36,589 nt of DNA. Source: Acidobacteriota bacterium (GTDB lineage Bacteria > Acidobacteriota > Vicinamibacteria > Vicinamibacterales > SCN-69-37). The DNA is taken from the NCBI GenBank assembly GCA_021824055.1, contig JAKALV010000001.1:1-36589 (forward strand), written 5' to 3'. Below, in pieces: positions 24,583-28,290 of the stretch (positions within the stretch are counted from its first letter, which is position 1; the number at the start of each line of letters is the position of its first letter). Under the pieces are notes generated by a model that had not been told where the DNA came from, did no database searches, and was given only the letters and a program-made list of their open reading frames with translations. A program made the position numbers and the translations under genes.

Positions 24583-24618
24583 AAAAGGCCCGGATGGCAA
24601 TGCCATCCGGGCCTTTCT
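24583..24618. terminator. Bidirectional intrinsic terminator shared by convergent tonB and groEL
   Basis: AAAA-GGCCCGGATGG-caatg-CCATCCGGGCC-TTTCT. The stem is an 11-bp GC-rich perfect pairing (24587..24597 with 24603..24613). An A-tract on one side and a T-tract on the other supply a U-tract in both directions. Confidence 0.85.
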
Positions 24619-24631
24619 GACTTCTGGCTTT

Positions 24632-26568
<1,937 letters not shown>

Positions 26569-26614: not shown

Positions 26615-26641
26615 CTAGCAGTCTCGTGGGACGACTGCTAA
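26615..26641 (-). promoter_or_regulatory. CIRCE (HrcA operator) variant in the groES leader
   Basis: The sense strand reads TTAGCAGTC-N9-GACTGCTAG against the consensus TTAGCACTC-N9-GAGTGCTAA. Arms are a perfect 8-bp inverted repeat (26616..26623 / 26633..26640) with an exact 9-nt spacer. The element abuts the -10. Confidence 0.75.
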
Positions 26642-26669
26642 ATATACCAAGAGCTGGGACAATCGGCAA
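26641..26669 (-). promoter_or_regulatory. Sigma-70-type groESL promoter candidate
   Basis: The minus strand reads TTGCCG (26669..26664), a 17-nt spacer, then TATATT (26646..26641). The CIRCE starts at the -10 edge, as in classical HrcA-controlled promoters. The -35 is itself part of the repeat array (AATCGGCAATCGGGG). Confidence 0.5.
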
Positions 26670-26845
26670 TCGGGGAATCTACAAGCGGCAATCGCTCATC
26701 GGCAATTGCCAATCTGGAATCGCGGATCGGAGAATCGAGGAATCGGGGAATCGGGGGATCGGGGGATCGGGGAATCGGGGAATCGGGGGATCGGGGAATC
26801 GGGGGATCGAGGGATCGGAGAATCGAGGGACCGGAGAATCGGCCG
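26661..26845. repeat. Left arm: tandem array of ATCGGGGR-type octamers (G-runs on + strand)
   Basis: The T of the ATCG core falls at 26727, 26735, ... 26839. That is 15 units in exact 8-bp register, with one degenerate unit (ACCG at 26830). Degenerate units with mostly 7-8-bp spacing (one 14-bp gap) extend back to 26661. One straggler CGATCGGG lies at 26851. The palindrome GGCAATTGCC is at 26701..26710. Confidence 0.95.
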
Positions 26846-26950
26846 GTTGGCGATCGGGAGGGCGTTCGAACTGCAGTGGATTCCCAGCCGGGGCCGCTCG
26901 ATGCGGCAATTCTTGCGACGTCGCCTATGCCGCCCGATAGCAGGTCTTGC

Positions 26951-27055
26951 GATTCCCCGATTCCCCGATTCCCCGATTGCCCGATTCCCCGATTGCCGAT
27001 CAGTCGATTCCCGATTCCCGATCGGCGATTGCCGATTCCCGATTCGGCAATTGCC
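26951..27055. repeat. Right arm: tandem array of GATTCCCC/GATTGCC units, reverse complement of the left arm (G-runs on - strand)
   Basis: GAT starts at 26951, 26959, 26967, 26975, 26983 and 26991 (8-bp spacing). Further starts at 26998, 27006, 27013, 27020, 27027, 27034 and 27041 have 7-8-bp spacing. That makes 13 units. The arm ends in the same palindrome GGCAATTGCC (27046..27055), 18 nt from the stop codon of the HTH gene. Confidence 0.95.
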
Positions 27056-27073
27056 CATGCCCGCCCGAAGCCG

Positions 27074-27286
27074 CTAGCCGGCTTTGCGGATTTTGTAGGA
27101 CGCCATCTTGCGGCTGAGGGTATTTCTGTGGAGCCCCGTGATCTTGGCCGCCTTGCAGACGTTGAAGTTGCTCTTGGCCAGCGCCCGCGCGATGAACATC
27201 CGTTCGAACTCACGCTGGGCATCGTCGAACAGGATGCCGCGTTCGATCATCGACTGAATCAGGCGTTCGAGGTCTTCTCGCATCAT
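27074..27286 (-). CDS. Small Fis-type helix-turn-helix DNA-binding protein (70 aa)
   Basis: Track ORF 27074..27424 overlaps purC, so I trimmed it to ATGATG at 27286/27283. The product is MMREDLERLIQSMIERGILFDDAQREFERMFIARALAKSNFNVCKAAKITGLHRNTLSRKMASYKIRKAG. The last roughly 40 aa match the Fis/NtrC C-terminal HTH pattern (A..LGI.R.TL.RK...). The gap after the purC stop is 26 nt. Confidence 0.72.
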   Translation of the reverse strand: MMREDLERLIQSMIERGILFDDAQREFERMFIARALAKSNFNVCKAAKITGLHRNTLSRKMASYKIRKAG

Positions 27287-27312: not shown

Positions 27313-28218
27313 CTAGACCTCCAGCTCGCGGCCCGACAGCAGCCGGTAGGCTTCCAGATATTTGGCCCGCGTGCGTGCCACGACATCGTCGGGCAGCGAG
27401 GGGACGGGAGGCTGCTTGTTCCACTTGATCTCTTCGAGATAGTCGCGGACGAACTGCTTGTCGTAGCTCGGCTGGCTGCGGCCGGGCGCGTAGTGCGCCT
27501 TCGGCCAGAAGCGGGACGAGTCCGGCGTCAGAATCTCGTCGATCAGGACCAGCTCCGTATTGTCCGGTCCGGCCAGCCCAAACTCAAGCTTCGTGTCCGC
27601 GATGATGATGCCGCAGGTTTCGGCGTGGGCGACGCCGCGCGCGTAGATGGCGAGCGTCAGGTCGCGCAGGCGCCTGATGAGCGCGGCCCCGACGATCTCG
27701 CCGGCGCGCTCCTCGCTGATGTTCTCGTCGTGACCCGATTCCGCCTTGGTGGCCGGGGTGAAGATGGCTGTGGGCAGCCGGTCCGAATCCCTCAAGCCCG
27801 CCGGCAGCGCATGGCCGCAGACGGCCCCCGTCTTGTTGTAGTCCTTCAGGCCGGAACCCGAGAGAAAGCCGCGCGCGACGCACTCGACCGGCAGCGGATT
27901 CGTCTTCCGGACCAGCATCGACCGGCCGCGCAGGATGTCGCGGTGCGGTCTGGTGGCGGCGGGGAAGTCGGCGACATCGATCGACACGAGATGGTGCGGC
28001 GTCAGATCACCGATCTTGCCGAACCAGAAGGCCGACAGCTGCGTGAGGACCTTGCCCTTGTCCGGTATCCCGGAACCGAGCACGTAGTCGAACGCCGAAA
28101 TGCGATCGGTCGCGACGATCAAGAGATGTTCGCCGAGATCGTAGACATCGCGTACTTTGCCGCGACGCTGCAGCGTGAGGCCCGAAAGATTCGTCTCCAG
28201 TACCAATGAGGTTGCCAT
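27313..28218 (-). CDS. purC: Phosphoribosylaminoimidazole-succinocarboxamide (SAICAR) synthase
   Basis: RGKVRDVYDLGEHLLIVATDRISAFD, DTKLEFG and DEILTPDSSRFW motifs. I prefer ATG 28218 (MATSLVLETNL...) over the track start 28266. Confidence 0.93.
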   Translation of the reverse strand: MATSLVLETNLSGLTLQRRGKVRDVYDLGEHLLIVATDRISAFDYVLGSGIPDKGKVLTQLSAFWFGKIGDLTPHHLVSIDVADFPAATRPHRDILRGRSMLVRKTNPLPVECVARGFLSGSGLKDYNKTGAVCGHALPAGLRDSDRLPTAIFTPATKAESGHDENISEERAGEIVGAALIRRLRDLTLAIYARGVAHAETCGIIIADTKLEFGLAGPDNTELVLIDEILTPDSSRFWPKAHYAPGRSQPSYDKQFVRDYLEEIKWNKQPPVPSLPDDVVARTRAKYLEAYRLLSGRELEV

Positions 28219-28290
28219 GCGGACAAGAAGAAATGGAAGCGTACGCACCTGCGCGAACGAGGTCAAGTCCGATACGCGTTTTCGTGCGGG

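Follow-up and report, generated by a model that had tools for sequence, protein, structure and literature searches.

What does an imperfect palindrome of about 400 bp do in front of a chaperonin operon? The question is raised by a stretch of acidobacterial DNA of 36,589 nt (the window; coordinates are window positions unless a locus, Lnnn, is named), in which two facing arrays of the 8-bp unit GGGGAATC lie between a Fis-type helix-turn-helix (HTH_8) gene and the groESL promoter. Judged by its sequence, the element is a large, octamer-dominated member of a described class of G-rich intergenic simple sequence repeats (SSRs) and not a new kind of element. We propose that it represents a slippage-expanded ancestral hairpin and that it may keep two transcription units apart as a barrier made of RNA or DNA, a function that we infer. 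We put the probability of this combined reading at roughly 0.55.

Opposed arrays and their variation between strains

The left arm comprises 15 to 16 ATCGGGGR units (26716-26845) and the right arm about 13 reverse-complement units (26950-27047), on either side of a unique centre of 104 bp. Tandem Repeats Finder reported a period of 8 for both, with 16.0 copies, 80% matches, a score of 149 and the consensus GGAATCGG on the left (26716-26842), and 12.8 copies, 8% indels and the consensus CGATTCCC on the right (26950-27045); it also reported a degenerate run of 7-mers at 26660-26722. A repeat search recovered 14 overlapping in-register copies throughout the left arm, spaced by exactly 8 bp, and the complementarity of the inverted arms reaches at most 93% over 45 nt. 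Of the unit GGGGAATC, the locus contains nine copies and the rest of the window (36 kb) a single one; 1.3 would be expected by chance, and none of 100 shuffles reached 10. The palindrome GGCAATTGCC is found on both outer flanks (26701-26710 and 27046-27055), and another, GCGACGTCGC (26915-26924), sits in the centre, bracketed by GCGGCA/TGCCGC. Reading of the sequence and both programs thereby bore out the opposed octamer arrays and the landmarks described in an initial annotation of the window.

Both arms are two-layered, with irregular 7-mers (GGCAATC, GGGAATC) outside and regular octamers inside. On the left, the outer layer (26661-26725) holds GGCAATC/GGGAATC-type 7-mers at irregular spacing and contains GGCAATTGCC; it is partly alignable with the related loci L122, L123 and L126. 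The inner left layer (26726-26845, plus strand) is made of 15 ATCGGGGR octamers in exact 8-bp register, which in the mRNA sense form the C-rich 3′ arm, (GAUYCCCC)n. Beyond the centre (26846-26949), the right arm is mixed in composition: six CGATTCCC/CGATTGCC units make up its inner layer (26950-26997, plus strand), which in the mRNA sense is the G-rich 5′ arm, (GGGGAAUC)n, and the 7-mers CGATTCC/CGATTGC make up its outer layer (26998-27057), together with GGCAATTGCC and a Xanthomonas-type heptamer pair (GGGAATCGGGAATC, minus strand). Units are more numerous in the C-rich arm than in the G-rich arm, and GGGGGATC is a variant seen in the left arm only. The left array has perfect units in its middle and degenerate ones towards either edge, the usual signature of an array growing by slippage from within. 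From its partial alignability with relatives, the outer part of the left arm (26661-26725) appears to be older than the inner octamers.

Three alleles of the spacer, of 505, 497 and 424 nt, were found among near-identical strains. L118 lacks exactly one GGGGAATC unit (26971-26978), and its spacer is 8 nt shorter than that of the window. L202, taken from another NCBI assembly, matches the window in its flanks at 99.7-100% identity (3 single-nucleotide polymorphisms [SNPs] in 1003 nt) but has a spacer 81 nt shorter, with gains and losses of units in both arms. Its mRNA-sense 5′ arm has three GGGAATC units vs two in the window and two octamers vs five, and its 3′ arm has about eight fewer units; its centre is kept with one SNP, and its 17-nt promoter spacer is repeat-free and identical to that of the window. 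As these differences do not amount to simple repeat collapse, the array is real and its unit number varies at the strain level. All assemblies bearing the array are short-read assemblies, and absolute unit counts are therefore provisional. Unit number is hypervariable between near-identical strains in both arms, with the palindromic layout persisting, and an assembly artefact is unlikely. The comparison of unit counts between strains that the initial annotation had suggested thus confirmed its suspicion of a slippage-prone, length-variable element.

It is extremely unlikely that the palindrome is a mobile element, in the form of a MITE (miniature inverted-repeat transposable element) with terminal inverted repeats made of tandem repeats, or that it arose in assembly. 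Such an origin would accommodate the presence of GGCAATTGCC on both outer flanks, two further contigs that break off within the array, and an insertion of about 256 nt in the same spacer of L165 compared with L164 (approximately L165:4240-4500), which is bounded by the inverted repeats GGATGGGCAGATTCCAGTG...CACTGGAATCCGCCCATCC and has a MITE-like look. However, four assemblies with different records (L116, L117, L120 and L121) agree at every base of the 505-nt spacer, there is no flanking target duplication, the centre has no other copy in the ~1.3 Mb of fetched loci, and homology of the outer units with those of relatives points to growth in place. We thus agree with the initial annotation that the element is neither an insertion sequence nor a MITE. 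It is not CRISPR-like either, as its units of 7-8 nt follow one another head to tail without spacers, and a non-coding nature is borne out by the absence of Pfam matches for the four open reading frames (ORFs) that cross the array, by the differences of 8 and 81 nt between alleles, and by the range of lengths of orthologous spacers (123-607 nt where nothing else is inserted).

Slippage-driven changes of copy number between strains are also a feature of the SSRs of contingency loci. Unlike at contingency loci, changes in unit number shift no reading frame or promoter spacing here, as the array is outside ORFs and outside the interval that separates the -35 and -10 boxes. A phase-variable promoter SSR was considered and rejected: the tract is located upstream and reaches as far as the -35 box, and the 17-nt promoter spacer contains no repeat.

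Relation to known repeats and wider occurrence

The initial annotation knew of no described element of this form, but convergent (GGGAATC)n pairs near stop codons have been reported in Xanthomonas. Rehm et al. (2015, PLoS One, PMC4692102) described (GGGAATC)n/GGGNATC repeats, about 185 per genome and ~90% of them intergenic, which are mostly flanked by co-oriented genes and have the upstream ORF at a mean distance of 28 nt. The repeats have 2-26 units, and 70-75 per genome consist of two convergent sites forming an inverted repeat. Repeat length differs between X. campestris and X. axonopodis with the pair type preserved, and repeat-bearing loci are more stable than controls. According to circular dichroism (CD) spectroscopy, carried out on the heptamer and not the octamer, (GGGAATC)4 oligonucleotides form G-quadruplexes (G4) and the C-strand forms i-motifs, and in Xanthomonas, transcript starts or ends coincide with G4-type repeats more frequently than with controls. 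That work did not assign a function to the class. A supplementary table lists inverted pairs between groES and groEL and between atpA and atpG (PMC4692102).

The definition used in that work, i.e., head-to-tail repeats of at least 14 bp of the type (GGGANTN)n with at least one GGGAATC, applies to our locus, where GGGRATCGGGRATC matches it. The element is likewise intergenic, near an upstream stop codon and between co-oriented ORFs; it forms a convergent inverted pair with the G-rich repeat once per strand and with arms of no more than 93% complementarity, and its length varies among relatives (505, 497 and 424 nt) while the pair type is kept. The units are nearly the same (GGGAATC vs GGGGAATC), the exact heptamer pair GGGAATCGGGAATC is also present here, and X. 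campestris pv. campestris (Xcc) likewise has a pair associated with its groES/groEL locus. There are nevertheless differences. The octamer dominates in our element, whose arms have 15 and about 13 units vs the usual 4 and which extends over 400 bp with a 104-bp centre, and the host is an acidobacterium (Vicinamibacterales-like) and not a gammaproteobacterium. The Xcc pair lies between groES and groEL, whereas ours precedes the groES promoter, with whose -35 box it overlaps. As to the genome-wide dispersal of the Xanthomonas class, the window and 8.5 kb more of the contig on one side (~45 kb) contain one array site. The class was previously unreported in Acidobacteriota in the literature that we searched, in which the literal octamer retrieved only primers and NF-κB sites, and heptamer repeats with terminators retrieved nothing beyond the two 2015 papers.

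Other repeat families share some of these traits. The short tandemly repeated repetitive (STRR) sequences of cyanobacteria (GGGGA(C/T)T in Nostoc PCC 7120) are also intergenic tandem 7-mers with a run of four G and a highly variable copy number, but few Nostoc repeats are paired as inverted repeats and their unit sequence is different. Repetitive extragenic palindromes (REPs) and bacterial interspersed mosaic elements (BIMEs) are, like our element, imperfect palindromes in intergenic or intercistronic positions at the 3′ ends of genes, and they are thought to stabilise upstream mRNA or to attenuate read-through. In contrast with the locus-specific tandem units found here, which have no such heads, REPs are dispersed units of 20-40 bp with conserved GTAG/CGTC heads and an associated transposase. 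TAACTGA heptamers of Beggiatoaceae, cyanobacteria and Bacteroidetes (MacGregor 2015, PMC4679880) similarly form intergenic arrays of a short unit that is found across distant phyla; they differ in being nearly all direct (one indirect), in lying just upstream of start codons and in being proposed as sites for a translational regulator (PMC4679880).

Octamer arrays were sought in other genomes, as the initial annotation had proposed. Runs of three octamers in a row, scanned for in one genome of each GTDB species, turned up at no fewer than 115 loci in many phyla, and several metagenome-assembled genomes (MAGs) among the matches listed, including a Vicinamibacteraceae MAG, hold multiple octamer arrays. 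An Oceanospirillales MAG (CAJXKA01) holds no fewer than eight separate arrays. Octamer arrays often lie at the extreme ends of MAG contigs (L013, L014, L043, L045, L059, L060, L098 and L111), which identifies them as assembly breakpoints. In genome assembly and annotation, such arrays break short-read contigs and create long spurious ORFs. A crude test of the position of octamer arrays after ORF stop codons, with stop-to-stop ORFs of at least 120 aa, in which stop-free repeats themselves lie in spurious ORFs, gave 28 vs 32.

Opposed pairs also occur at other loci. A strict regular expression for opposed partners in the 115 loci found none, which was a false negative, as Tandem Repeats Finder with matching of rotated consensus sequences revealed many degenerate partners. 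Over all fetched loci, that program detected opposed arrays of short units at many other places, each with a unit of its own. One such pair in a Vicinamibacteraceae MAG (L043:6315-6982) is made of opposed 9-mers, ACAGAGCCT in 17.7 copies and its complement in 13.9 copies, 386 bp apart; it is of a scale similar to that of the window with an unrelated unit, and a GGGGAATC array lies at the contig end of the same 8-kb locus. We determined the order of the arms in 35 non-redundant opposed pairs (window and L001-L201), a sample of loci ascertained through the octamer. The G-rich arm was 5′ in 25 of them, the C-rich arm in 3, and 7 were neutral (p ~3e-5). The G-rich arm is then the 5′ arm on both strands, as it is in the window, which agrees with the "always convergent" remark of Rehm et al. 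(PMC4692102).

Growth in place and possible functions

A metagenome scan with the HTH protein provided 80 loci. The purC-HTH-groES synteny is kept in relatives with 67-97% HTH identity, and many of the orthologous spacers hold opposed arrays of 6-9-bp tandem units that extend from the stop codon to the -35 box. The unit is specific to the lineage: GGCAATC in L122, L129 and L160, AATCGGG in L159, GTCCGRG in L127 and L137, CTAACGG in L140, GGAACCN in L148, and GGTTCAT with GGGTTCC in L162-L165. Folds with z <= -3 were obtained for 14 of 24 distinct orthologous spacers, in which at least seven unrelated units are used. The recurring feature thus appears to be the structure and not the sequence.

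Comparison with L122 was informative as to the origin of the element. The flanking genes of L122 and the window have 90-96% DNA identity, yet only 49 of 403 spacer nt are alignable. The alignable stretch is the outer layer, GGCAATTGCCGAATCG..GGCAATCGCCGAT, which is common to the window, L122, L123 and L126. As the outer units are homologous to those of relatives, these alignments show, within the reach of sequence comparison, that the element grew in place on a spacer that in relatives holds analogous arrays of other units.

The shortest spacers, those of L125 (133 nt) and L124 (154 nt), have a single hairpin of the same units followed by UUUU or UUUUU. The hairpin of L125 reads CCGGCAAUCG-GGAAU-CGAUUGCCGG GGUUUUC, that of L124 has a 12-bp stem followed by GUUUUU, and in both the groES -35 box TTGCCG is within the 3′ arm. 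Unit number then rises from L123, which has few, to L122, with about 20, and to the window. From this graded series, an in-place multiplication of the arms of a terminator-like ancestral hairpin suggests itself, the idea of an ancestral terminator relying on folded RNA models and on U runs that can be read in the sequence, and we infer descent from such a hairpin overlapping the groES -35 box. From the L125 hairpin through the few units of L123 and the ~20 of L122 to the 424-, 497- and 505-nt strain alleles, nature offers an allelic series for testing array function. It adjoins an easily assayed promoter, that of groESL with its controlling inverted repeat of chaperone expression (CIRCE), and concerns a class that was described in 2015 without a function.

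According to our proposal, the spacer between purC-HTH and groESL would originally have held a single hairpin with the arms GGCAATCG/CGATTGCC, with a short U run behind it and the groES -35 box inside its 3′ arm. Replication slippage would have multiplied the arm sequence in each arm independently, leaving old, degenerate 7-mers outside and young, homogeneous GGGGAATC octamers inside. A transcript reading out of the HTH gene would fold into a very long imperfect hairpin tolerant of register shifts; this hairpin would either be processed or make RNA polymerase pause or terminate, and would in this way separate the purC-HTH transcript from the groESL promoter controlled by HrcA/CIRCE. The exact length of the array is probably not under selection.

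Folding of the minus-sense RNA 27073..26640 (the mRNA sense) against shuffled controls, a check put forward in the initial annotation, gave -224.2 kcal/mol with z = -7.0. The antisense RNA reached -249.8 kcal/mol (z = -9.1) and the plus strand as single-stranded DNA -130.9 kcal/mol (z = -8.2); the 104-bp centre alone had no significant fold (z = 0.15). The strong potential for a hairpin or cruciform that had been surmised was therefore supported, with z between -7.0 and -9.1. The antisense RNA folds ~25 kcal/mol better because the arm mismatches are G.U pairs on the plus (antisense) strand and A.C on the mRNA-sense strand, and the same bias exists in most relatives (spacers L122-L185). In these models, there is no sign that the hairpin is tuned at the level of the sense transcript. 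The strand bias may come from a replication-strand mutation skew; the cumulative GC skew climbs along the window.

Several observations weigh against a barrier formed by the hairpin. No U-tract is present past the 3′ arm in the window, and a terminator scan found no terminator on the minus strand; the same genome places a canonical terminator after groEL. The better pairing of the antisense arms (-249.8 vs -224.2 kcal/mol) is the opposite of what selection on an mRNA-sense hairpin would produce. Among relatives, the strict terminator scan did not call the L125 hairpin, and 10 of the 24 orthologous spacers have no significant fold or one-way arrays only (the latter in L149, L155 and L157), which indicates that the palindrome is dispensable. 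In Xanthomonas, pairs are located inside the groES-groEL and atpA-atpG operons, and the class can thus not be a strong terminator everywhere. Of the giant terminator proposed in the initial annotation, the hairpin stands; the missing U-tract, the A.C mismatches in the mRNA sense and the 10 unfolded spacers leave termination unproven.

Our element resembles intrinsic terminators in having a hairpin right after a stop codon, and L125 and L124 have stems of 10-12 bp with four or five U. It differs from them in that the window allele has no U-tract and in that its stem is imperfect and an order of magnitude longer. An intrinsic terminator by the strict definition was rejected, with the hairpin present, the U-tract absent and no call on the minus strand.

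Two features constrain any explanation, namely the survival of the opposed layout through full replacement of the unit, including by units unable to form G4, and the almost invariable 5′ position of the G-rich arm. They bear first on the view that the element is functionally inert, a microsatellite that propagated itself neutrally in a tolerant spacer and whose palindrome was merely inherited from the ancestral hairpin. In line with this view, even strains whose flanks are 99.7-100% identical differ in array length, which is extremely labile, 10 of 24 orthologous spacers have no significant fold, the sense strand lacks a G.U signature and the literature reports no function for the class (PMC4692102). 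However, neutral expansion on its own predicts neither the return of opposed arrays to the locus once the unit has been wholly replaced nor the 5′ position of the G-rich arm in 25 of 28 skewed pairs, and in Xanthomonas the pair type is preserved between species and repeat loci are more stable than controls (PMC4692102). We consider inertness unlikely, albeit an explanation to be reckoned with.

A quite unlikely extension of the barrier model is that opposed arrays in general constitute a selected, sequence-independent structural module that blocks transcription in both directions, by a hairpin, by an R-loop or G4, or by Rho loading. Since any register still pairs, such a barrier would stay functional after slippage. 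The retention of the layout through full unit turnover, the flip of a whole module between L162 and L164, and the 5′ position of the G-rich arm in many phyla may fit this idea.

The module inversion concerns L162:4251-4426 and L164:4259-4425, which are identical at 155 of 176 positions (88%) in reverse complement vs 133 of 176 (76%) in forward orientation, with flanks that stay collinear around the inverted segment; such palindromes can thus flip. In L126 (560-900), ~350 nt of unrelated sequence separates the opposed arms, a gap that measures 104 nt in the window and is absent from L122, showing that palindrome centres accept insertions.

We give little credence to an action through G4, i-motifs or R-loops in place of the hairpin. 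In this scheme, transcription from either side would first make the G-rich arm, with a G4 or R-loop involving the non-template strand, and then a long C-rich, G-poor arm that might load Rho, resulting in a bidirectional block. The arms contain 18 of the 21 canonical G4 motif starts of the 36.6-kb window, and the inner left arm (26726-26845) has 15 of the 18 such starts that the whole window has on its plus strand. The formation of G4 and i-motifs by the heptamer strands in CD experiments (PMC4692102), the G-rich-arm-first order in 25 of 28 pairs, and the larger number of units in the C-rich arm, part of which would stay unpaired, are also in line with it. Conversely, relatives keep the opposed layout with units that are unable to form G4 (CTAACGG, GGTTCAT, AAGTTAG and GTCCGAG), the competing hairpin is predicted to be very stable, and Rho dependence is pure conjecture.

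The initial annotation had also considered a protein-binding array. The element could be imagined to bind the adjacent Fis-type HTH protein or a nucleoid protein and to organise the region upstream of the heat-shock promoter, given that the HTH gene and the groES -35 box adjoin it on either side, that direct and inverted 8-bp units resemble operator arrays, and that the purC-HTH-groES synteny is conserved. However, the recognition helix of the HTH protein, TGLHRNTLSRKM, is identical across all lineages with unrelated spacer units, and the arrays can therefore not be its specific target. The close relatives L125 and L124 are nearly array-free, and many phyla, as well as other loci that lack this HTH gene, have octamer arrays. 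This makes a binding-site array very unlikely.

Genes, promoter and other repeats around the element

Gene calls placed all the genes concerned on the minus strand, in agreement with the leftward transcription and the Fis-type HTH/groESL context initially described. purC (27313-28266) is followed by the HTH_8 gene (27074-27286; 70 aa), its neighbour in Acidobacteriota, whose stop codon (27074-27076) is separated from the array by 17 nt. On the other side are groES (26278-26568; 96 aa, Cpn10) and groEL (24632-26263). The window was traced to contig DAIERI010000152.1 of GCA_027346905.1, and close homologues of the HTH protein bear the NCBI labels Acidobacteriota or Vicinamibacterales. The 70-aa HTH_8 gene directly downstream of purC is kept down to ~45-50% identity, even where groES is not next to it (L122-L201), and this conservation suggests a functional link of the small regulator to purC rather than to groESL. 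No Rfam family was found at the gathering threshold in a search of the element; the sole matches, to long-hairpin microRNA models, were far below it (47 vs 137 bits).

The candidate groESL promoter is of the sigma-70 type (26641-26669, minus strand), with the -35 box TTGCCG (26669-26664), a 17-nt spacer and the -10 box TATATT (26646-26641). Its -35 box sits within the repeat unit GATTGCCG, among the outermost units of the left arm, and L125 and L129 have the same arrangement. The hexamer is part of this unit in the window, L122, L124, L125 and L129, and as a consequence any such unit within the 3′ arm resembles a -35 box; the box of more distant relatives is a canonical CTTGAC located apart from the repeats. 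Directly past the -10 box is a CIRCE-like inverted repeat, TTAGCAGTC-N9-GACTGCTAG (26615-26641, minus strand), which is conserved in all relatives with groES downstream and which we take to be of the HrcA operator type. Most relatives (spacers L122-L165) have a second inverted repeat, CAGTCAGN...CTGACTGCCAG, in the groES 5′ untranslated region directly past CIRCE, and the window has a diverged version of it, GCGAGCTGTGGGGCCGAGTGCCAGG.

The intrinsic terminator of groEL (24583-24613, minus strand) is a GC stem followed by UUUU, with a predicted -37.5 kcal/mol and z = -7. As modelled, it shows that the organism uses ordinary terminators. In relatives, the stretch from the groEL stop codon to the terminator is full of tandem units of 7-8 nt (L122:2636-2700, L129:6705-6850, L148:6428-6470 and L157:5275-5330). 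AAGGCAG and AGAAGYN heptamer arrays flank the groEL terminator on both sides in L129, and 2.5 copies of GGGGAATC lie ahead of it in L148. The corresponding region of the window (24583-24634) has just ~2.5 AGAAGYC units near the groEL terminator.

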